Below, piece by piece: positions 2,163 to 12,698 of a stretch of 58,150 bases of DNA. This stretch comes from a bacterium (lineage in GTDB: Bacteria; Zhuqueibacterota; QNDG01; CAYUAG01). Under the pieces are notes generated by a model. It was not told the DNA's origin, did not search any database, and saw only the letters and a list, made by a program, of their open reading frames with translations. Numbering within the stretch: position 1 is the stretch's first letter; every line of letters starts with the position of its first letter. The DNA lies in contig JAWODZ010000187.1 in assembly GCA_046483025.1 (NCBI GenBank), forward strand, positions 1 through 58,150. The letters are read 5' to 3'. The position numbers were made by a program, and so were the translations under genes.

Positions 2163-3287
2163 ATGTCTGCTATTAAAATTTACAGTTTTACTAGCAATGA
2201 CAAAAACAGATGGAAGGATTTTGTTAAATTCCCCTATGTTCATTACAAAAATGATCCTTATTGGGTTCCTCCTCTTATATCTAATCAAAAAATACTTCTG
2301 AATCCGGATAAACATCCATTTTATCAGCATGCTTCAGTTAATTTTTTTCTGGCACTATTAGATAACCGGGTTGTGGGAAGAATAGCAGCAATAATTGATA
2401 AAAATCACAATGAAGTGCATAATGAAACAACAGGATTTTTTGGGTTTTTTGAATCAATTGAAAATTTTCAAGTTGCAGAGAAACTTTTTACTGCTGCCAA
2501 ATCCTGGATAAAAAATCAGGGCATGACCAATTTTCGCGGGCCCGCAAACCCATGTTTAAATGAAGACTGTGGTTTTTTAACCAATGCATTCAATTCTCCT
2601 CCTGTAATTATGATGCCGTATAATCCATCTTATTACATCAAATTTGCAGAAAAATTTGGTTTTAATAAAGCAATGGATCTTTATGCCTACTATATTGACA
2701 ATAATAAAAAAATTCCTGATAAACTGGTTAAAGTTGTAAAAATTGTGCGTAAAAAAGAAAAAGTAAATATACGGCCATTTAATCTAAAAAATTTTAGTAA
2801 CGATGCTAAAATTGTATGGCATATCTATAATAAAGCCTGGGAAAAAAACTGGGGCTTTGTGCCCATGACAGAAAATGAATATAACTATTTAGCCAAAAAT
2901 CTTAGACAAGTTGTTGAACCGGAGCTTGCTCTGTTTGCAGAAATTAATGGCAGACCGGTTGGTTTTTCTCTGTCATTACCAGATATAAATCAGGCATTAA
3001 TTCATACCAATGGCCGTCTTTTCCCATTCGGTCTTATTAAATTACTCTGGTACTCAAAAAAAATTGATATGATCCGGACTATCATCATGGGGGTAATTCC
3101 TGAACATCGAAATAGCGGTATTGATGCTCTGTTTTATTATGAAACCTGGAAAAATGCAGTAAAAAAAGGATATGTAAAAGATGAAATGTCCTGGATTCTG
3201 GAAAATAACAGAATGATGAAACGCAGTGCAGAAATGCTGGGCGGAGAAATATATAAGACCTATCGATTATATGAGATGAAAATTTAA
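2163..3287 (+). CDS. YghO-like GNAT N-acyltransferase, candidate bacterial ceramide synthase (bCerS)
   Basis: DPYWVPPL, VGRIAAIID, GFFGFFES, MMPYNPSYY, NWGFVP and MSWILENN motifs; 17 bp downstream of spt. Confidence 0.7.
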   Translation: MSAIKIYSFTSNDKNRWKDFVKFPYVHYKNDPYWVPPLISNQKILLNPDKHPFYQHASVNFFLALLDNRVVGRIAAIIDKNHNEVHNETTGFFGFFESIENFQVAEKLFTAAKSWIKNQGMTNFRGPANPCLNEDCGFLTNAFNSPPVIMMPYNPSYYIKFAEKFGFNKAMDLYAYYIDNNKKIPDKLVKVVKIVRKKEKVNIRPFNLKNFSNDAKIVWHIYNKAWEKNWGFVPMTENEYNYLAKNLRQVVEPELALFAEINGRPVGFSLSLPDINQALIHTNGRLFPFGLIKLLWYSKKIDMIRTIIMGVIPEHRNSGIDALFYYETWKNAVKKGYVKDEMSWILENNRMMKRSAEMLGGEIYKTYRLYEMKI

Positions 3288-3380
3288 TAAAAAAAACAGC
3301 AGTATATTCATCATTTACCTACTATCCCCTATCAGAAATTAACTCTATACTTTTCCATCTCCTGAATTTAAAAATTTTTA

Positions 3381-4850
3381 TTATTTAAAATCGTAAAATG
3401 AGATTATTTCCGGATCAACATTCCTGTACTTAGGTAAACATTGTCCTGCATTTGCATTAACATATGTAGGATCACATTCAATATAATTCTCTCCGCAATA
3501 ACTGATGTATTTACCATCAATATGTGTATTAATTTTCACAGCTGTTGCAATATGGCCGGGATAGTCTAGACCTAAAACATCTAATTTTAATAGATTCCTG
3601 ATTAAATAGGCAAATAATACAGCCCTGTCCTCGCAATCGGAACCGGGATAATAAAGTGTCTCTTCAATGAATAAGGGTTGTTCATTACCAAACTGTTCAT
3701 AATCAGATGTATAGGTAAAACTTTTTTGCACAAAATGTAAAATTAAATTCACTGCTTCGATTTCAGATTTTCCCACCAATAAAGGTTTCAGACTTTTCAA
3801 TAAAGAATATCTGCTCTCATTAGAAATAGGTGCATTGAAATAAATAGCATACTCGGTTAACGGATATTGTGTATAGAAGTCGACAATTGACTTATTAATA
3901 TTCAAAGATAAAGAATAATTTTTATGTAAATAATCAAATTCCAAAGTTTTTTTTATAATATGGGGGTTCACTGCAGGACATAAATATATATTCATATCTA
4001 TCATGGAATCTGCATCAGGATAATTTCCACAATAAGTATGAATATTATTTTCCCCCTCTGATGAATAAATATTTGTCAGCAGATAGTATCTTCGGTTATT
4101 GGAAGTGATAAAGGAATGATTATATAAAATATTTTGTGATGAAATTAAAAGTAAAATTGTATCATTACTATACCCGACTTTCACATCATAACCGGACTTC
4201 TGCATTATAAACCATATGACTAATTTTACTATATTAGCATCATCAGGAAATATCTGAGCGGTACATTGACTTAAGAATTTATAAAATGCCCAGTCATTTA
4301 ATTTCATTTTATTCTTAACAGTATTGCATTGATCAAGCAAATAGGAATAGTGTGTTTTACTGATTTGACTCCAGAATCTACTTATATCAGTATTATCAAA
4401 GTTTCGGGGCAATTCAATCTTTTCCAAAGCCACGTCATACATCAGACTGCAGGAGGTATTTAAAAAATAAAAATCAACTTTTTTCACATACTTAAATTTT
4501 AATTTCGGTCTTTTGATAAATCCTAAACTTTCATTTTTCGGAGCAGGTATGAATTTGAAATCTTTCATTTTATATGTCGGGGATGCAGAGTCAATATCAA
4601 CCTCTTCAAAATTTTTAACCGGCATTTGTGCAGGTTTGGGAATCTCATCAGGAATTATCCCCTGTGTCAGTTCAAACTCCTTCCACTCATTTTTTAAAAA
4701 TTCAGTGAATTCTTTATCCCTCTTTTCCAAAAAATCACTGAACTGTTCATCTTCCTGCTGTAACCAATCTTTAAAATTCTGTTGAGCATAAAAATTCAAT
4801 GGATAAATAAAAACTATCAAAAAAACAATTATACCCATTGTATATTTCAT
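3381..4850 (-). CDS. Exported protein with C-terminal transglutaminase-like Cys-His-Asp domain
   Basis: Signal peptide MKYTMGIIVFLIVFIYPLNFYAQ; SDCEDRAVLF, YPGHIATAV and CDPTY give a C-H-D triad. Confidence 0.65.
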   Translation of the reverse strand: MKYTMGIIVFLIVFIYPLNFYAQQNFKDWLQQEDEQFSDFLEKRDKEFTEFLKNEWKEFELTQGIIPDEIPKPAQMPVKNFEEVDIDSASPTYKMKDFKFIPAPKNESLGFIKRPKLKFKYVKKVDFYFLNTSCSLMYDVALEKIELPRNFDNTDISRFWSQISKTHYSYLLDQCNTVKNKMKLNDWAFYKFLSQCTAQIFPDDANIVKLVIWFIMQKSGYDVKVGYSNDTILLLISSQNILYNHSFITSNNRRYYLLTNIYSSEGENNIHTYCGNYPDADSMIDMNIYLCPAVNPHIIKKTLEFDYLHKNYSLSLNINKSIVDFYTQYPLTEYAIYFNAPISNESRYSLLKSLKPLLVGKSEIEAVNLILHFVQKSFTYTSDYEQFGNEQPLFIEETLYYPGSDCEDRAVLFAYLIRNLLKLDVLGLDYPGHIATAVKINTHIDGKYISYCGENYIECDPTYVNANAGQCLPKYRNVDPEIISFYDFK

Positions 4851-4852
4851 GA

Positions 4853-6433
4853 TTATTTCTCCATAGTAGTGATTACAATTCTTTCTTCAGTCTTCAAAAC
4901 TTCACTATATTCAATTCTCTTCATGCCGCGGGTTTTACTTAAAAAAGTATGGAGATCTTCCTTTAATATTTTATAGCCATCAACTAACTCAGTATCAATT
5001 TTTTTAAAGGGTTTGGTCTGAGCAAAAATCTGAAGCACTTCCACTCCATAAGGCTGATCACAAACAAATTTATCAGGAATTTTATATGCAGTATTCACAT
5101 AGGAACGATCAATAAAATAATTATCCAATAAAACAGTTCGCACCCCGTTTGCAAGATGATACATCAATCTGATATAGCAGGGTATATTCACCCGAAGAAA
5201 TATATTCATAATTTCATCATCATAAAATACTACTCCACTTCTTCCTTTATTAGTCCAGGCATCAAGAAAAATCCCTCCATTATTAATTTCACCCTGAGAA
5301 AATATCTTTTGTTCCTTTAACGCCTGACTAAAATTTTCTGGTGTTATTTCATGTCCGGTTTTATTAACCATACTCTGCGGTATCATGATATTCATACTTG
5401 CTGCAATCTCGTCCTGCTGATTGCATATTTCTGCCATAATCTCTATACTATCTCTTTGCTGCCAATAGGTACCTTTTAAAAAAAACAATGAATCGGCTGT
5501 CTTAAAATCTGTTAAGTATATATCTGAATTAATATTTTCCAATGATGAAGAACCTCTCATGCTGAACCCGGGTAAACAGCTGATGTTACTTTTGAGATTA
5601 TGGTGTAAAAATGAAGCAAAATTACTCGACATTCCGGTATTCTGGAAAGTAAAGGGAAGTATAATCAATCTGCCGGTTGTGTTTTTCAACTGATCCTGAA
5701 AACAATTATACATAAAAAGAGTTACATCTTTAATATTTTTTATGGGCTGCTGTCTAAGTTTGCGAACCATTCTGTTTAATTCCGAAATCTTCACATAATC
5801 ATTTTCTATTTCTGAATCCTCAAGCTCGGCAAAAGTATGGATCATATTCGAAGAAGAGGCATGGATTATTCCCCAGGCCCGGAATAATTTATTAAATAAG
5901 GGATAGCAATGCAGATAATATTTTAAAGCAAGAGACTCATTACCTTGTTGTTGAGCCCGTTTTCCCAGGTTATAATAATGAGAAATATCATTTTGTAATC
6001 TCTTTTTAATTAAATTATAATGATCAATGATTTTCTGTCTCTTAACATAAACCAGAGCATAGGCAGTCCTGGATTTTTTATCATAAAACTTTTCAACCTC
6101 AGAACCCCATAATTGCACCTGCGATGCTGATTGAGTAACTGAACTGTAAATTTGTGAATACTGTCCTTTCCCTTCTTCGGTCCTCATTTTAGTATGTGAT
6201 TTAACAGTAAGATAAATTTTATTGATTAACTCCTTTTGGGCATTCTGGACTGAAATATTCATACATTTTGTTTTGTTATTGTCTTGAGTTAATGCTGCAA
6301 CTCCAAAACCGGTCAGATATATTTCTTTGGGGTATCGATCGGTTTTTCCAAAATTATCAACCCAATCAGGTGCACCAGCAATAACCAAGACAGGGAAACT
6401 GATAATAAGTAAAGTACCTATATATTTTTTCAT
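4853..6433 (-). CDS. Exported protein with LPP20-like N-terminus and DUF4384-like C-terminus
   Basis: Signal peptide followed by PDWV...YLTGFGVA (LPP20-like); C-terminal WTNKG...IFLRVNIPCYIRL...PYGVEVLQIFAQ (DUF4384-like). Confidence 0.6.
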   Translation of the reverse strand: MKKYIGTLLIISFPVLVIAGAPDWVDNFGKTDRYPKEIYLTGFGVAALTQDNNKTKCMNISVQNAQKELINKIYLTVKSHTKMRTEEGKGQYSQIYSSVTQSASQVQLWGSEVEKFYDKKSRTAYALVYVKRQKIIDHYNLIKKRLQNDISHYYNLGKRAQQQGNESLALKYYLHCYPLFNKLFRAWGIIHASSSNMIHTFAELEDSEIENDYVKISELNRMVRKLRQQPIKNIKDVTLFMYNCFQDQLKNTTGRLIILPFTFQNTGMSSNFASFLHHNLKSNISCLPGFSMRGSSSLENINSDIYLTDFKTADSLFFLKGTYWQQRDSIEIMAEICNQQDEIAASMNIMIPQSMVNKTGHEITPENFSQALKEQKIFSQGEINNGGIFLDAWTNKGRSGVVFYDDEIMNIFLRVNIPCYIRLMYHLANGVRTVLLDNYFIDRSYVNTAYKIPDKFVCDQPYGVEVLQIFAQTKPFKKIDTELVDGYKILKEDLHTFLSKTRGMKRIEYSEVLKTEERIVITTMEK

Positions 6434-6466
6434 TATTTCTGCCTTTTAAAATTATGCACAAAAAAA

Positions 6467-9340
6467 TTATTTAGTTACTATGGGAAAATCCGGAATTGAC
6501 TCAGGTACGATAGTTGTTGGTTTTTGATGTCCTTTGGTCAATTCTTTAACCCGTTTGGTGATATAGAAATCAAGTTCTTTTATGGTTACAATTTCATTCT
6601 TATCAAAATCAGCGCGCATATATTTCAGTCCGTCCAAAAGAGCTTTGGTAAAAGCTCCATGTTCCCAGCTGGGATCTTCATAAGCAGCAGAATTATCAGT
6701 AGTTGCTGTCATTATTACCTGACCCGTTCCGGCAGCAATTAAATCCTTAATTGCAGTAGTAATATCTGCTTCTCCTCTTTTTTTGCTGCCTAAGATATTG
6801 CCGGAATGGCAGGCATCTACAAAAAGAATCACTTTCGAGGGGAGATTGGTAATAACATCTTTAAATTCAGTCCACTTTACTGCTGAACTTCTTAAATTCT
6901 GGATATCTGCATCATAACTTAAAAAATAATAATTATTTAATCCGTCATTAATACCGTGACCTGCAATAAACATAATAACTACATCTTTTTGTGTTGCCTC
7001 ATTAATAAGCCAGTCTATACTATTTAAGATATCTGCTCTGCCGGCCTCAGTATTTGTTCTGATTTCATGAGAAATACTCTGATATAGTTTTGTTTGAGTT
7101 TTAAAAATTTCAACAATTGACTGAGCATCAGAGGCGGCATAATCTAATTTATACCGCATGTTTTTATATTCAGATATTCCTATAGATAAAACATACAGGT
7201 TTGGTTTGTATACACTCTCACCATTTTTACTTTTTATATGAATATATACAGGATTGCTGGCAGCAAATCTGTTTCCTGCTACTATCTTTAAAACACTGGT
7301 TCCATACGGTACTTTTATTGTTTTTCTTATATTTTCAAAACTACTGTTATCATCAACTAAAACTTTCATTCCCCGGTCTTTGATCTCTCTTCCATTCAAA
7401 AAAATTTTAATATCGGTAATATTAAAATCAGATTGAGCAATAACATCAAAATCAACAGATACCTGTTTATTATATGTAATAATCTCCTCCGGAGTATTCA
7501 ACTCTATCTTGGGTGGAAGAATATCTTCTACAGTGACCTCACTTAAACGCATATTTTTTTTTGTATAAGCAAGTGCTTTCTCTTCACTTTTTAATTTAAC
7601 TATATTTTTCATTAATGATGGCTGGTAATAGGAGCGAAAAAAACGATCCGAACTAAAATAATCTGCAGCGCGATCAAAGCCACGATTTATATGATATCCT
7701 ACAAATTGATCCCCTCCGATACTTGAGGCATAATATCCTTTTTCAGACCATACTACCCATTCATCATCCTTACTGATAAAAATATTTAGTAGAGGATAAA
7801 TCTTTTTAACATCAGACTGAGTTTGCCGTAATGATTCAAGATTCCAGAGTTTAATAGTCTGATCACTGCTTCCGCTTACTAATAATTGATCATCTACTGC
7901 AATACTCCACACTGTTCCGGTATGACCGATAAATACACCGATAATTTCACCTGCCAGATTATATGCATTTAAATACCCGTCATTTCCACCGGAAATAATT
8001 AATCCTTTATCAGTAAATCCATAGGTTCTGTGCTGATATCCGTTTGTAGCATCTCTTACTATTCTCTTTAAAACTTCTCCATCTTTTCTGATTTCCAACA
8101 CAGCATCAGAAAACCCATACTTTCCTCCCCTGATATGCTGAAGTTTGAAAGAATGATTAAGTCCGTTATATCCAACTGGAATACAATTGAATTTATCACC
8201 TTCTTGAATATGTTTAATCACAAATTCATTCAGATCAAAATATCTTTCCAACTCTGTCTTTTCATTGGTATAGGTCATAGGGGTGAAGCCAAAACCAATT
8301 TTTTCATCAGATATGCCAACACTCCACACTTTTCTGCCCTTGCCTTCAATAACTCTTTCTACCCGGGCGGTATTAATGTTCCAAAAATAAATTTCATAAT
8401 TTTCTCCGCCTCCGGTAACTGCAGTATTTTCATCAATAAAAGCTACTGCCTGAGTTAAAGCATGCTGTTTATTGAAAGTGGTGATTTTATTAAACCCGGT
8501 GCGGAGATCATAAATATTATTATTCGGAGGAAACCCGACATGCCCGGAAACAAGATATCGCCCGCTTTCTGAAAAAGAAAGACCAGTGGGCCGGGTTTTA
8601 GTGTATATATTTTTAATGAGATTCAGATCCCGGTCAAACAGACTGATTTTATTAGCTTTTCCACATACAGCTATATATCTTCCGGAAACTGCTACATGAG
8701 ATAACTTATAACTATTGTCAATTGATTTGATTAATCCTGAATTAAGAGAGTGTAGATTTAACCGTTGATCATATCCAATTGATACAATTCTGTACTCAGT
8801 ATTTTCCTTAAAAATATCAACTCCGTACACATCATCGCTATGATGGGAGAATTCTTTGTAAAGCTTAAAACTGCCGTTCTCTTTACTCCAGACAATAACC
8901 TTTCTGTCCATTGCTCCTGATACCAGCAGATTACCATCATGATTAAAATCAACATCCAGTACAAGATTTGAATGCCCCTTCAGGGTCTGCACTATTTCTC
9001 CGGTGGGAAAATTATAAATTCTGATTTCATTATCACCAAAATAACCCCCGACTGCCAGATATTGATCATCCGATGACAGAGCAATTGCTGATATCATCCC
9101 TCTGCTGCCGTTTCCGATCTGGCCGATAATTTTTCTTACTTCTTTTCCCAGATCAACATCCCAGATACGTATGGTTTTATCATCACTGGCTGATATGAGA
9201 AATCTTTTATCAGAAGTAACTAGAATATCCCAGATTCTTGCTTTATGTCCGCCTGTATCTAGCTGCAATATGGCATTATTCTGAGCTGAAAGCAGACATT
9301 GTATAAAAAAACAAAAAATTAATATTGAAATTTTTTTCAT
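6467..9340 (-). CDS. Exported WD40-repeat protein with C-terminal caspase-like peptidase C14 domain
   Basis: Start moved to ATG 9340 (signal peptide MKKISILIFCFFIQCLLSAQ). GH...WD repeats (GHKARIW..IRIWD, GHSNLV..VIVW, GHTGTVW..IKLWN); LYVLSIGISEY; intact dyad FIAGHG and VDACHSG; WEHGAFT; QKP. Confidence 0.9.
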   Translation of the reverse strand: MKKISILIFCFFIQCLLSAQNNAILQLDTGGHKARIWDILVTSDKRFLISASDDKTIRIWDVDLGKEVRKIIGQIGNGSRGMISAIALSSDDQYLAVGGYFGDNEIRIYNFPTGEIVQTLKGHSNLVLDVDFNHDGNLLVSGAMDRKVIVWSKENGSFKLYKEFSHHSDDVYGVDIFKENTEYRIVSIGYDQRLNLHSLNSGLIKSIDNSYKLSHVAVSGRYIAVCGKANKISLFDRDLNLIKNIYTKTRPTGLSFSESGRYLVSGHVGFPPNNNIYDLRTGFNKITTFNKQHALTQAVAFIDENTAVTGGGENYEIYFWNINTARVERVIEGKGRKVWSVGISDEKIGFGFTPMTYTNEKTELERYFDLNEFVIKHIQEGDKFNCIPVGYNGLNHSFKLQHIRGGKYGFSDAVLEIRKDGEVLKRIVRDATNGYQHRTYGFTDKGLIISGGNDGYLNAYNLAGEIIGVFIGHTGTVWSIAVDDQLLVSGSSDQTIKLWNLESLRQTQSDVKKIYPLLNIFISKDDEWVVWSEKGYYASSIGGDQFVGYHINRGFDRAADYFSSDRFFRSYYQPSLMKNIVKLKSEEKALAYTKKNMRLSEVTVEDILPPKIELNTPEEIITYNKQVSVDFDVIAQSDFNITDIKIFLNGREIKDRGMKVLVDDNSSFENIRKTIKVPYGTSVLKIVAGNRFAASNPVYIHIKSKNGESVYKPNLYVLSIGISEYKNMRYKLDYAASDAQSIVEIFKTQTKLYQSISHEIRTNTEAGRADILNSIDWLINEATQKDVVIMFIAGHGINDGLNNYYFLSYDADIQNLRSSAVKWTEFKDVITNLPSKVILFVDACHSGNILGSKKRGEADITTAIKDLIAAGTGQVIMTATTDNSAAYEDPSWEHGAFTKALLDGLKYMRADFDKNEIVTIKELDFYITKRVKELTKGHQKPTTIVPESIPDFPIVTK

Positions 9341-9473
9341 CGCACAATTTTTTTTAAAAGCCTTTAAATGATTATTCTGAACTGGTAAAAAAATTACCAC
9401 CCTGGTTCACTGTTGTTCTGTTCATTTTTTTCGTTACTGCATTCTTTAAATATTTTTGTATTCACTGCTATCA

Positions 9474-9491
9474 CAGCAATATTTATGCCCT
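9474..9491 (-). promoter_or_regulatory. Candidate sigma54 promoter upstream of the WD40-caspase gene
   Basis: Minus strand AGGGCATAAATATTGCTG = GGCA-N6-TTGCT (GG-N10-GC), in the only large gap of the cluster. Confidence 0.5.
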
Positions 9492-9572
9492 GTATAGATA
9501 TTGTTATGTACTCAATAAGGTTTGATAAATGACTGGAGTAAAAGATGTCAAAGATAGATCATATTATGTCCA

Positions 9573-10277
9573 TCAATATTTTTGATCAAGCTCCTTGAAC
9601 ATTTTTTCTGATTTTTTTCTTACCTTCCTGATCCAGTAATCACTGGTGTTAATTTCTGCAGATATTTGAAAACATTGTTTGCTTTTATCATTTCTGCCTT
9701 GATCAAAATAATATAATCCCTCAGAATACTTTTGAAACGATTCAACCGAACCTCTGGAAATCACTGTTTCCGGTTCAACAGAATATTCAGGTCTGATGGC
9801 TTTTAGTATATCAACACTGATAGTGTATTCCAGAACACTGAAATCATAAAATTCATCTATGGAAAAATATTCTAAAATACTGAATATAATTTCTCCGCTG
9901 GAAATACGTATACCTCTGATATGAAAACGTACATTCGAAGACAATTTGTGAATAGTTGCGGTTATGATGACATCAGCTCCCATCATTTTACCGATTTTAC
10001 TGACACCATCATCTGAAGTTAAACCGCATTCATGTAATTTTATTTCCTGAAGAATCTCACTCAATTTGATTCTTTCTAATACTTTTAAATTGTTAAATTT
10101 ACTCAATCTGTGCGAAATAGCATCGGGCAGTCCGTGACTATAAATCTTGGAGTTTTCAACCTTGCCTAACACCTGGAAAGGTACTACGGCAACTGAATTA
10201 ATCTTTTCTACCGACGACGCATCTCTGTTAAAACCAGATGATAGAATCAACAACGCCAGACAAATAGATTTAAACAT
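9573..10277 (-). CDS. Exported CsgG/FlgO/TolB_N-like protein with C-terminal TPR-like helices
   Basis: VAVVPF, VLERIKLSEILQE and KIGKMMGADVII are CsgG-like; YSEGLYYFDQG is TPR-like; N-terminal signal. Confidence 0.65.
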   Translation of the reverse strand: MFKSICLALLILSSGFNRDASSVEKINSVAVVPFQVLGKVENSKIYSHGLPDAISHRLSKFNNLKVLERIKLSEILQEIKLHECGLTSDDGVSKIGKMMGADVIITATIHKLSSNVRFHIRGIRISSGEIIFSILEYFSIDEFYDFSVLEYTISVDILKAIRPEYSVEPETVISRGSVESFQKYSEGLYYFDQGRNDKSKQCFQISAEINTSDYWIRKVRKKSEKMFKELDQKY

Positions 10278-10298
10278 AATGGATTATTCTCCTGTTTT

Positions 10299-10877
10299 CT
10301 ACCATTGATGGTTCTTTCTCTGTCTGCGTTCTTCATATTTTTTAATTTCTTCTTCCAGTTCTTTAAATACTTTGGAAGAACGAAACCGGGTATACATTTC
10401 TTCATTATCTTTAATCTGCTCCATTAAGGCTTTATTGGAAGCCCCGATTGGATAGGACATCAATACATACGCTCTGAACTTATCATCATGTTTCACAACT
10501 TCCTGTTTGTTCACCTTACTCCCGGAAAGCGCAGTTGATACCACCTGCTTTGAAGCTGCATTAAACTGCTGGAGTATCTGAGTATTTTCACCGCTTCCCA
10601 ACTCTTCCATAAAGTCTTTTTCCAATCCGTCAATTTGAGTTCTTACCTGTCTGGCGATTTCCTGTCTTGCTCCATGTTTGGCTTTGTCAAAGGCTGTCTG
10701 CATATCCACTGAGGTTTGGGTATTAACTCCGAAAAAATTGTTGTCATCAGTAGGGGGATTTTGATACCACACCGGCACTCTGCCGGTCGAAACATCTGTT
10801 AATGACTTGGATCCGGCACATCCTAAATACAAAACACTAAGAATAATTGTAAACATTGTAAGCAATATTGATCTCAT
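10299..10877 (-). CDS. LPP20-family lipoprotein
   Basis: Lipobox YLGC; VPVWY; AFDKAKHGARQEIARQV; FRAYVLM; AAGGAG RBS. Confidence 0.7.
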   Translation of the reverse strand: MRSILLTMFTIILSVLYLGCAGSKSLTDVSTGRVPVWYQNPPTDDNNFFGVNTQTSVDMQTAFDKAKHGARQEIARQVRTQIDGLEKDFMEELGSGENTQILQQFNAASKQVVSTALSGSKVNKQEVVKHDDKFRAYVLMSYPIGASNKALMEQIKDNEEMYTRFRSSKVFKELEEEIKKYEERRQRKNHQW

Positions 10878-10900
10878 TGTAATCTCCTTTTCATAAATAG

Positions 10901-11683
10901 TTAAAAATTAATTTTAAATTCTTTGGTAAATAAAAATTTATTTCCATCTTTATAATAGACATCCAAATTCCATTGTATGGTCTGATTTTTCGGGATACTC
11001 TCAATCGGATACATAAATAATGTGTCAGTTAAAGTTTTTGCAGAAGTAATTATTTTTTCATCTTTTACTCTCTTTAAATAGCACTGATAGTAGTCAGCTT
11101 GCGGCATATAAGGCCATTGGAACACCAATGCTCTTCTTTCAATATTTTTTTTAATAAACATTTTCTTCATAAAGGACTCAGTAAAATCATCTCTTTCTGC
11201 CTGGGAACTTAATTTTGAGTCTGAAATACTGTCCCCATAAGCCTTTGATTTAATGCTTTCAGGGGGATGCACAATAGATTTTTCAGAACTTTTATTAACA
11301 ATTAAACTAAAATCATTTAACGGGCCGGGAGAGCTAAAGAAATACACCATTAATACTATTACCGCTGCAGCAAATCCCGGGATAATCACTCTTGCTGGTC
11401 GAGGCATGGAATTAACATTGTCAATACAATTTTTAACAACAGCAACTATTTTATCTTTTACTCTCATTACAAAGTGTTCCCTGGAACGGACAGCCTCTCT
11501 GAAATCTTCAATATTATTTTTGATGGTTTCAGTAACTGGTAAAAATGAATAATATTCCTTATAACAAGCTTCGCATTCAAGAAGATGTTTCTCAAATTTC
11601 TTCTTTTCCTGAGGAGTCAGCTTGCCAAATTCATAACGTGCCAGAAGGTGTCCAATTTCAGGATCAGTACATTTATCGCTCAT
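10901..11683 (-). CDS. Zinc-binding (zf-HC2/ZAS) transmembrane anti-sigma factor
   Basis: FEKHLLECEAC (HxxxCxxC); TM helix IIPGFAAAVIVLMVYFF; Ig/FN3-like extracytoplasmic tail. ATG 11683 follows GAGGAG and overlaps the sigma stop (ATGA). Confidence 0.85.
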   Translation of the reverse strand: MSDKCTDPEIGHLLARYEFGKLTPQEKKKFEKHLLECEACYKEYYSFLPVTETIKNNIEDFREAVRSREHFVMRVKDKIVAVVKNCIDNVNSMPRPARVIIPGFAAAVIVLMVYFFSSPGPLNDFSLIVNKSSEKSIVHPPESIKSKAYGDSISDSKLSSQAERDDFTESFMKKMFIKKNIERRALVFQWPYMPQADYYQCYLKRVKDEKIITSAKTLTDTLFMYPIESIPKNQTIQWNLDVYYKDGNKFLFTKEFKINF

Positions 11684-12585
11684 ATAATTCTCCTCTTTAT
11701 TGCTTCTTGTTTCAATCTTTTTCTGCATCTGGAAATTATCACATCTATCCTGCTTCTGGATAGATCAGGAAAAGCTTCATGAATAACTTTTATATCCCCG
11801 GTTGAAAAAAGAAGACTGAACACTTTCTTACACCTCTCTCCCATTCCTTGTACGATCTTTAGAAGATGATTCTTTAAATCTTCACATTCCGATAATTCAA
11901 CAGGATGCCACCTGTAAACTGCATCATTAAAAATATTCTCCTCTGAATTAAAATTCATTGCTGTCTTTTTTCCCTTGTTTTCAGAATTCTCTGTTTTAAG
12001 TGAAACATTTCTTTTTCTGATAACATCACTTAATCTCTTTTTATATATTGGTTCATACTCCTCTGCAGATAAGCTTTTAATCTGCTTACGTTCCCTGCTC
12101 ATCTTTCTTCGATATTCTTTATATTTATTGTTCAGTATAGTCTGAGCCCATTGAATAAAGCTTCCTTTAGGTTCTGAATATTTGCATTTCTCAAACACAA
12201 TTTTCAGAGCATTTTGTACAATATCCTCTCCATCTGCTTTTTGAATATAATTTCTGTCTCTATACATTTTTCTCTGCATTAAATTGGAAAATCTCCGGTA
12301 AAGTATGTCGAAAAGTTCTTTTTCACATTTTTCTGAATTCTGTTTTATCCCTTCTACCAATGCTAAAAAATATTGATCAATCTCTTCATCTAATATTTTC
12401 TGAGCCCAATTGATTAATCCATCGTTACTGTCAAAAGAAAATTTATTCTCTTTTATTTTGTTCATTGCTCTGCTTAAGACAATTTCTGTAGATTTTCTCA
12501 TACATAATATCTCTTGTATTAAATGCAAAAATCTTTCAGATAATTTTTCAATATCACGATTTGATAAAAAACTATTACTAATCAT
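11680..12585 (-). CDS. ECF-type sigma-70 family factor with N-terminal extension
   Basis: Region 2 EDIVQNALKIV...SFIQWAQTILNN; region 4 MGERCKKVF...IDVIISRCRKRLK; translationally coupled to the anti-sigma gene. ATG 12585 after AAGGGA is preferred over 12621. Confidence 0.8.
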   Translation of the reverse strand: MISNSFLSNRDIEKLSERFLHLIQEILCMRKSTEIVLSRAMNKIKENKFSFDSNDGLINWAQKILDEEIDQYFLALVEGIKQNSEKCEKELFDILYRRFSNLMQRKMYRDRNYIQKADGEDIVQNALKIVFEKCKYSEPKGSFIQWAQTILNNKYKEYRRKMSRERKQIKSLSAEEYEPIYKKRLSDVIRKRNVSLKTENSENKGKKTAMNFNSEENIFNDAVYRWHPVELSECEDLKNHLLKIVQGMGERCKKVFSLLFSTGDIKVIHEAFPDLSRSRIDVIISRCRKRLKQEAIKRRII

Positions 12586-12698
12586 TATATTATATTCCCT
12601 TAAAATCAAACATAATCTCACACTTTTTATTTATTAAATATACAAAATTCTTGTCTGTATGCAAACATCTTATTAATTATAATATTCTGCAGGAAAAT

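Follow-up and report, generated by a model that had tools for sequence, protein, structure and literature searches.

An LPP20 lipoprotein and a transglutaminase-fold enzyme in a candidate composite operon with an exported caspase and an ECF-like sigma/anti-sigma pair

Why should a short stretch of bacterial DNA bring together a sigma factor, its putative membrane-bound anti-sigma factor, two LPP20-family proteins, a caspase with a signal peptide and a transglutaminase-like enzyme? This question is raised by a 9-kb cluster of seven genes in the window, a stretch of 58,150 nucleotides at the start of contig JAWODZ010000187.1 (assembly GCA_046483025.1). An earlier note, made from the letters of the DNA alone, had named the domains of the seven co-directional genes and had proposed an envelope signalling system built around the caspase. 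The gene set that it described was borne out by open reading frames (ORFs), Pfam and NCBIfam, and its interpretation overall is partly supported. The pair that recurs most often across genomes is the LPP20 lipoprotein with the transglutaminase-like enzyme (hereafter TGL), and we favour reading the cluster as a genus-specific composite operon of three modules that also occur separately, a reading in which our confidence is evenly balanced.

A seven-gene cluster in the window

All seven ORFs lie on the minus strand, within 3381–12621, and were assigned by ORF calling together with Pfam and NCBIfam domains (Table 1). The sigma and anti-sigma genes overlap, and the remaining intergenic gaps measure 2–33 nt except for the one upstream of the caspase gene, which spans 172 nt, or 232 nt when counted from the ATG at 9340. 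Comparison with congeners favours this start for the caspase, together with the ATG at 12585 for the sigma factor, the position at which the earlier note had ended the cluster, and the ATG at 11683 for the anti-sigma factor. A signal peptide or lipobox was seen on five of the proteins and a transmembrane (TM) helix on the anti-sigma factor, which largely upholds the earlier claim that all but the sigma factor are exported or anchored; the CsgG-like protein has the least certain export signal, its N-terminal hydrophobic stretch being short and below the TM threshold used.

Table 1. Positions of the cluster genes and of the long intergenic region in the window
Feature	Position	Strand	Basis
Divergent ECF-like sigma-70-family factor, ~100-aa N-terminal extension	11680..12621	-	TIGR02937, Sigma70_r2
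ZAS-type anti-sigma factor (zf-HC2, one TM helix, ~140-aa periplasmic domain)	10901..11728	-	Pfam
LPP20-family lipoprotein, 192 aa, lipobox LGC	10299..10877	-	Pfam
CsgG-N/FlgO/LpoB-like alpha/beta domain protein, 234 aa	9573..10277	-	Pfam
Intergenic region with two conserved elements	9341..9572	-	Congener comparison
Exported WD40 beta-propeller, beta-sandwich, caspase (C14) protein, 977 aa	6467..9400	-	Pfam, NCBIfam
Secreted LPP20–DUF4384 protein, 526 aa	4853..6433	-	Pfam, AF2 model
Predicted secreted transglutaminase-fold Cys-His-Asp enzyme (TGL), 489 aa	3381..4850	-	Alignment, AF2 model

The host assembly comprises 3.9 Mb in 252 contigs and contains three Peptidase_C14 matches, three LPP20 matches and one intact TGL gene. 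Because two of the three LPP20 genes, one of the three caspases and the only intact TGL share these 9 kb, the arrangement goes beyond chance. Two congeners (G001 and G002) have all seven genes in the same order, with 54–84% protein identity; in a third congener (85% complete), no TGL match was found. The flanks hold housekeeping genes (lysine 2,3-aminomutase-like, ABC transporter, aminotransferase and GNAT), and these are common to the window and one congener.

Two elements in the region at 9341–9572 are kept in all three congeners despite gap lengths of 232–632 nt. The element at 9476–9491 is AGGGCATAAATATTGC-like, and that at 9384–9405 is the palindrome TGGTAA-N5-TTACCA, which lies ~60 nt upstream of the caspase ATG, is unique in the genome when up to two mismatches are allowed and might serve as an operator or a promoter, or form an RNA hairpin. 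No ECF-type promoter (extracytoplasmic function, ECF) could be assigned by eye in this region or upstream of the sigma gene, and a promoter and terminator scan returned fewer promoter-like sites than were found in shuffled sequences. An RNA-library run yielded four 151-nt contigs at least 99% identical to the cluster, at 7953–8228 and 10645–10952, one of which crosses the anti-sigma/LPP20 junction. The study and habitat label of this run differ from those of the DNA holders. DNA is possible in such libraries, the contigs do not demonstrate transcripts, the uncovered parts are uninformative and the whole is a weak hint of cluster expression.

The LPP20 lipoprotein and TGL across genomes

Conservation was followed in a census of 86 loci, many of them cut by contig ends: the window contributed its first 25 kb, relatives contributed five loci, and the 80 best genome-contig loci made up the rest. 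Its 1069 ORFs came from a simple ORF caller and were searched with hidden Markov models (HMMs) iterated from the proteins of the window and of the loci L013 and L015. An LPP20-family ORF lay within 10 kb of TGL in 50 of the 80 loci, and in 22 of the 33 loci with at least 5 kb on both sides. Within the same distance, a DUF4384 protein was present in 14 of the 80, an LpoB/CsgG-like protein in 10, a caspase in 8, and a sigma or anti-sigma factor like those of the window in none. The caspase count, set against that of LPP20, speaks against a system built around the caspase. On the neighbourhood conservation that the earlier note had asked about, the genes do co-occur elsewhere: beyond the two congeners with all seven genes, LPP20, TGL, caspase and DUF4384 come together again in other lineages of the FCB group (Fibrobacterota–Chlorobiota–Bacteroidota and allies). 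The sigma pair of the window does not.

TGL itself is patchy among close relatives (6 of 41 related genomes) and broadly spread beyond them. Relatives were found in no fewer than 587 species genomes, which belong to many phyla; by record title, carriers include Bacteroidota, Calditrichota, Cloacimonadota, Ignavibacteriae, KSB1 and Marinimicrobia, and also Gammaproteobacteria, Spirochaetales, Desulfoluna, Deferribacteraceae, Arcobacteraceae and Nitrospirota. The protein collection holds 637 TGL homologues, nearly all of them unnamed or ‘hypothetical’.

Four gene orders recur. The minimal form, seen in Gammaproteobacteria, is an LPP20 gene (~195 aa) followed by TGL. The Calditrichaceae-type order runs from an LpoB-family lipoprotein through a ~470-aa protein with a weak TPR match, two LPP20 proteins (~350 and ~200 aa), an LPP20-like protein (~265 aa), a ~391-aa CarboxypepD_reg protein and an optional LPP20–DUF4384 protein to TGL. 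Bacteroidales carry two LPP20 genes and a long TGL (~880 aa), joined in some loci by a CARDB–caspase (~576 aa) and a ~300-aa DUF4384 protein. In G039, G031, a KSB1 metagenome-assembled genome (MAG) and a Calditrichaceae MAG, the order is DUF4384, TPR–CARDB–caspase, outer-membrane protein barrel, LPP20, LPP20-like, a Ser/Thr kinase–TM–TPR–FGE-sulfatase protein (FGE, formylglycine-generating enzyme) and then TGL. The LpoB-family lipoproteins of TGL loci match at E of 1e-41 to 1e-43. An MltC-like lytic transglycosylase (SLT + MltC_N) lies within five genes of TGL in seven loci, which span Desulfoluna, Nitrospirota, Gammaproteobacteria, Deferribacteraceae and Bacteroidales, and further recurrent neighbours are PEGA proteins (seven loci), the CarboxypepD_reg family (12 loci) and a LysM protein (one locus). 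These neighbours point to the cell wall.

The LPP20 lipoprotein of the window scored 26.8 bits against PF02169 (cut-off 25.9), which places it in the family, and all 31 relatives that were aligned keep its lipobox Cys20. It has no NCBIfam match, and so no FlgP or FlgO equivalog. A direct phmmer search found its relatives in 41 of the 86 loci. Its copies in the loci L013 and L014 are 44–46% identical to it, as compared with 36–37% for TGL itself.

These identities bear on the possibility that the cluster is two or three unrelated adjacent units with no shared function: the sigma factor, anti-sigma factor, LPP20 lipoprotein and CsgG-like protein on one side, and the caspase, LPP20–DUF4384 protein and TGL on the other. 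The long gap with its own conserved elements falls between these sets, the sigma/anti-sigma genes are unlinked to TGL loci beyond the genus, and synteny among congeners alone is weak evidence for a common role. However, the LPP20 lipoprotein of the first set is the orthologue of TGL’s commonest partner elsewhere, and the conserved pair therefore spans the gap. Moreover, the scan detected no terminator-like site on the minus strand within the cluster, and the other gaps are just 2–33 nt. We consider unrelated units unlikely.

The enzyme of this pair is divergent in sequence. Its Transglut_core match (E 0.028, 15.1 bits) is below the cut-off of 23, and no Pfam LapG-family match was found. However low these scores, the Cys-His-Asp set that the earlier note had pointed out, C406 (in SDCEDR), H433 (in YPGHIA) and D460 (in CDPTY), is invariant in 25 of 25 diverse relatives. 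The chain comprises a signal peptide, a conserved helix, a Pro-rich linker, a middle domain and the catalytic core at residues 330–489, and was modelled with AlphaFold2 (AF2) at pLDDT 87.3 and pTM 0.85. Foldseek ranked a Cytophaga putative cysteine protease and LapG highest, both below threshold. In VIA-align, LapG ranked at the top (Z 9.0, rmsd 4.2, 143 residues), followed by TglA (Z 8.7) and the Parabacteroides putative protease BDI_1141 (Z 8.4), with transglutaminases, PNGase and the pseudomurein endoisopeptidases PeiW and PeiP in lower rows; the top rows span Z 7.3–9.0. The list consistently shows a transglutaminase/papain-like fold and covers ~330–489, where the triad lies. The triad and the papain-like core fold together assign TGL to the transglutaminase-like superfamily, and with its signal peptide it is a secreted transglutaminase-fold Cys-His-Asp enzyme, a putative protease and a putative cross-linker alike. 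Both outputs in the earlier proposal, cross-linking or proteolysis, thus stay in play, the modelled fold being as near to the periplasmic cysteine protease LapG as to cross-linking enzymes.

The resemblance extends to setting. As in the LapD–LapG switch, a secreted transglutaminase-fold Cys-His-Asp enzyme, with LapG as its best structural match, is encoded beside outer-membrane-anchored proteins. TGL differs in that its 489 aa include an extra helix, a Pro-rich linker and a middle domain, and Pfam showed neither a LapD-type receptor nor a LapA-type adhesin among the cluster genes, to which this search was confined. A complex prediction of TGL (residues 25–489) with the LPP20 lipoprotein (residues 21–192) gave 0.09 against a mark of 0.32 and, having no controls, speaks neither for nor against binding.

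Two further forms of TGL were seen. On contig C103 of the same genome (~9012–9493), a fragment that is 51–55% identical to the C-terminal third of TGL is interrupted by TGA stops and is probably a decayed second copy. Long TGL forms of ~870–905 aa, found in Bacteroidales loci, carry a ~390-aa C-terminal extension that matches only the long forms and short stretches within the N-terminal half of TGL, and may be a degenerate duplication. Fusion of the ~880-aa Bacteroidales TGL with the ~391-aa upstream protein was considered and rejected, as the extra ~390 aa are C-terminal and match each other only.

The CsgG-like protein matches CsgG at E 1.9e-10 over just profile positions 11–111 of 210, FlgO at E 6.9e-5 and, weakly, LipL41 (NCBIfam, E 0.01). 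No TPR family was found by Pfam at E ≤ 0.1, in disagreement with the earlier note, which had described a TPR in this protein. With half a profile matched and a conserved N-terminal Cys absent in three congeners, it is not a full CsgG channel. Related domains occur elsewhere in the genome. A paralogous envelope cluster on contig C206 (4156–8605, minus strand) encodes an LPP20 protein (327 aa), a TPR + SLH protein (384 aa), a FlgT_N-like protein (399 aa) that matches the DUF4384 HMM, and a full-length CsgG (303 aa). On contig C46 (3706–5250, minus strand), a 514-aa WD40 protein matches the CsgG-like HMM at E 3.4e-7; the Pfam matches listed for this protein are WD40 families only, and a WD40 + CsgG-N fusion is unconfirmed.

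The caspase, its DUF4384 partner and the sigma/anti-sigma pair

The caspase reached 72.9 bits for Peptidase_C14 (cut-off 21.4) and, as the earlier note had stated, has an intact His/Cys dyad, with H815 in AGHG and C864 in DACHSG. These features assign it to Peptidase C14; both catalytic motifs are kept in 13 of 13 caspases of TGL loci, and the two congeners share the signal peptide. Its best NCBIfam match is the EACC1-associated type (NF047832), at 80.9 bits and below the cut-off of 140, and phmmer gave no match of the caspase domain to PDB sequences at E ≤ 0.001. We know of no substrate for exported bacterial caspase homologues.

The adjoining LPP20–DUF4384 protein has a signal peptide of the non-lipoprotein type. 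It scored 34.5 bits for LPP20, above the cut-off of 25.9, and 23.6 bits for DUF4384 (PF14326), below the cut-off of 27; five of its relatives carry PF14326, and the architecture recurs beside TGL in nine loci. Its AF2 model (pLDDT 72.6) matched the LpoB C-domain (E 2.6e-4, TMt 0.61) and H. pylori HP1454 (E 2.9e-4) in Foldseek, as well as TolB (TolB-N) and, weakly, FlgT. The model suggests the order LPP20/SHS2 domain, helical region, LpoB/TolB-N-like domain and DUF4384 beta-sandwich. HMMs built from the DUF4384 of the window and from small DUF4384 proteins of the type in L013 (Pfam E 2.4e-16) matched non-overlapping loci.

Caspase and DUF4384 are coupled. A caspase occurs in 13 of the 86 loci, a DUF4384 protein in 19 and both in 12, often as adjacent genes, so that 12 of the 13 caspase loci have a DUF4384 protein; seven loci have DUF4384 beside TGL with no caspase. 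Contig C173 of the same genome encodes a second caspase (435 aa; 2208–3515) followed directly by a DUF4384 protein (285 aa; 3546–4403), with no LPP20 or TGL gene nearby. Because this pair sits away from TGL, caspase and DUF4384 are a module of their own. Orthocaspases fused to DUF4384 and orthocaspases fused to WD40 are documented. DUF4384 has also been reported at the C-terminus of some Csx30 proteins, which are the substrates of the caspase-like protease by which type III-E systems control a sigma factor.

The sigma factor is divergent as well. It matched TIGR02937 (sigma70-ECF) at 37.8 bits (E 1.4e-9; cut-off 42.9), with residues 101–306 aligned to profile positions 4–164, and Sigma70_r2 at 22.1 bits (E 1.3e-4; cut-off 24). 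Its length is 313 aa from a GTG start and probably 301 aa from the ATG that matches the congener start, outside the compact two-domain, ~200-aa form of ECF factors, and the N-terminal extension is retained in G001. We regard it, on sequence grounds, as a divergent, long sigma-70-family or ECF-like protein. Among 167 genomes of the phylum, strong matches were found only in G001 and G002. The next-best relative (E 9.6e-19, 33% identical) is a 487-aa sigma–TIR fusion in an unrelated context (G007, contig C35, 9914–11377, minus strand), whose N-terminal half is sigma-like and whose C-terminal part is a TIR domain, and it adjoins a two-component system. Residues 1–100 of the window sigma (window 12322–12621) align in register with its own sigma-2 region and share W-A-Q-x-I-L; a duplicated sigma-2 domain is nevertheless unsupported, as residues 1–100 against 101–213 gave E 0.22 in BLASTP.

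The cognate anti-sigma gene lies directly downstream, and its likely ATG overlaps the sigma stop, as it does in G001 and G002. The protein scored 25.0 bits for zf-HC2 (PF13490; cut-off 22.2), has the zinc motif H48-x3-C52-x2-C55, of which all three residues are invariant in three of three congeners, and spans the membrane once (residues 114–132); by the HxxxCxxC motif, the Pfam threshold and the single helix, it belongs to the zinc-binding anti-sigma (ZAS) family. Its ectodomain resembles small beta-sandwich domains (Atlas structures), which is a lead only. In common with known ECF sigma/ZAS pairs, the genes are adjacent and overlapping, the anti-sigma factor combines its HxxxCxxC motif with one TM helix and a periplasmic domain, and exported proteins are encoded downstream. 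In contrast to those pairs, the sigma factor is long and below the curated cut-offs, and the cluster has no site-1 or site-2 protease gene. The downstream gene set (caspase, TGL and LPP20 proteins) matched no ECF system described in the literature searched.

Do the caspase and the sigma pair form one pathway? In a caspase-centred periplasmic cascade, the WD40 domain would sense a ligand, the caspase would cleave the anti-sigma ectodomain and/or the DUF4384 protein, and the ECF sigma factor would be freed and TGL activated. This would fit an exported caspase with an intact dyad, its coupling to DUF4384, the presence of DUF4384 in some Csx30 substrates of the sigma-freeing type III-E protease and the linkage of caspase to ECF sigma genes that is described for the cytoplasmic EACC2 systems. 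It would also fit the finding that seven of the 13 caspase loci carry a transmembrane signalling protein (sigma/anti-sigma in three, a one-TM kinase–TPR–FGE-sulfatase in four), whereas caspase-less loci are almost without such proteins. However, those signalling contexts stem from just two lineages, 72 of the 80 TGL loci have no caspase and all 80 lack a sigma/anti-sigma pair like that of the window. The anti-sigma ectodomain also shows no sequence similarity to DUF4384 (hhalign against the LPP20–DUF4384 alignment, probability <1%), and in seven loci DUF4384 stands beside TGL with no caspase. We give this cascade a low probability.

The type III-E Craspase (Cas7-11, Csx29, Csx30, Csx31 and RpoE) is among the closest precedents, in that a caspase-like protease adjoins a sigma/anti-sigma pair and some Csx30 proteins carry DUF4384. 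The window has neither cas genes nor a repeat array (none was detected by TRF and a direct-repeat search), with the cas comparison confined to the window, and the type III-E sigma model NF041236 gave 18.6 bits on the window sigma, far from its cut-off of 100. The protease differs too, being a C14 caspase with WD40 rather than TPR-CHAT, and all the proteins except sigma would act outside the cytoplasm. An extended version would place a periplasmic Craspase-like switch atop an undescribed outer-membrane-proximal machine, with an LPP20-fold and LpoB-like scaffold serviced by the LapG-like TGL; the caspase would sense a ligand through WD40, TPR or CARDB and cleave the DUF4384 scaffold protein, with relay over the inner membrane by the anti-sigma factor in this genus or by the kinase–FGE-sulfatase in other lineages. 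We hold this extended version to be improbable.

A different role for the same enzymes would be in conflict. In an envelope defence system, the exported WD40–caspase and TGL would act on invaders, competitors, phage parts or predators, and the sigma factor would mount a response. The conflict systems described in PMC7159879 and PMC8195603 typically use caspase, WD40, TPR, kinase and FGE-sulfatase domains; there, the EACC1 and EACC2 systems combine caspases with variable sensor domains and the EACC2 caspase genes are linked to an ECF sigma gene (Kaur et al.). The patchy distribution among the related genomes, the TIR fusion of sigma’s nearest relative beyond the genus and the broken second TGL copy on C103 are of the kind that defence would predict. 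However, the catalogued systems are cytoplasmic and the window proteins have signal peptides, with no EACC domain or NTPase found among them. PADLOC returned a generic caspase match (E 3.3e-10) and one weak repeat-domain (HEAT-ARM) match on the WD40–caspase, nothing for the other six cluster proteins and no system-level match; nor does the cluster hold nuclease or mobile-element genes, and its flanking housekeeping genes are retained in a congener. LPP20 with TGL looks instead like a single-copy envelope set with wall-enzyme neighbours, and a defence function is very unlikely.

A composite operon of three modules

We return to the composite operon. Its conserved core, module A, would be the outer-membrane LPP20-family lipoprotein and the secreted TGL hydrolase, usually accompanied by LpoB/CsgG-N-like and further LPP20-domain scaffold proteins. 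We infer a scaffold role for these proteins from the behaviour of LPP20/SHS2 proteins, the LpoB-like partners and the wall-related neighbours: they may build or reshape a layer of protein that lies between outer membrane and peptidoglycan, in which TGL would process or cross-link the LPP20-type scaffold or wall peptides. Module B would be the exported caspase and the DUF4384 protein, with the latter as a candidate substrate or docking partner, such that the pair would add a second proteolytic control step. Module C, the divergent ECF-like sigma and zinc anti-sigma factors, would place expression of both other modules under the control of an envelope signal; at the least, the five exported proteins would be the sigma factor’s regulon, and possibly its input too.

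The scaffold idea draws on flagellar outer rings (FlgO, FlgP and FlgT) and on the H. pylori lpp20 operon (HP1454, HP1456 and HP1457), in which LPP20/SHS2 lipoproteins are likewise encoded beside CsgG-N/LpoB-like proteins, and the model of the LPP20–DUF4384 protein appears to resemble HP1454 and, weakly, FlgT. FlgP, which has the LPP20 fold, is reported to assemble into rings on the inner side of the outer membrane and to be an interaction partner of HP1454 and HP1456. Unlike those systems, the cluster has metabolic flanks and no flagellar genes, and includes two cysteine hydrolases and a sigma pair; with neither a flagellar context nor an equivalog match, it does not belong to the flagellar H-ring or basal disk. 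In the literature searched, supplements aside, no association of LPP20 with TGL or of LPP20 with caspase and CsgG is described, although the supplements of PMC7159879 and PMC8195603 could hold neighbourhood tables.

Several points weigh against the composite operon. The 172–232-nt gap with conserved elements precedes the caspase gene, and two transcription units are therefore possible. Of the 33 well-flanked loci, 11 have TGL but no neighbouring LPP20 gene, and the counts depend on our own ORF caller and iterated HMMs, with related genomes that are not independent. The TGL model had no Foldseek match in the PDB at E ≤ 0.001, and Z 9 is little above the usual best score of VIA-align for unmatched models. 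The CsgG-like protein and the middle part of the LPP20–DUF4384 protein have no sequence similarity (hhalign, probability <1%), and what links them is a fold match of the LPP20–DUF4384 model, whose pLDDT is 72.6. Finally, the members of the operon are known from genomic and computed data only.

What the cluster means differs for its parts. With its relatives, it names DUF4384 proteins as candidate substrates for exported caspases, although we infer both these substrates and the direction of signalling. The caspase/DUF4384 domain pairing is recorded in type III-E CRISPR systems as well. The LPP20 lipoprotein and TGL, judged from their genomic association, would be a widespread and undescribed envelope module and, independently of the caspase, are candidates for a new component of the Gram-negative envelope. 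Cultured carriers of the pair, such as Desulfoluna spongiiphila AA1, D. limicola ASN36 and Natronospira elongata, are open to genetics.

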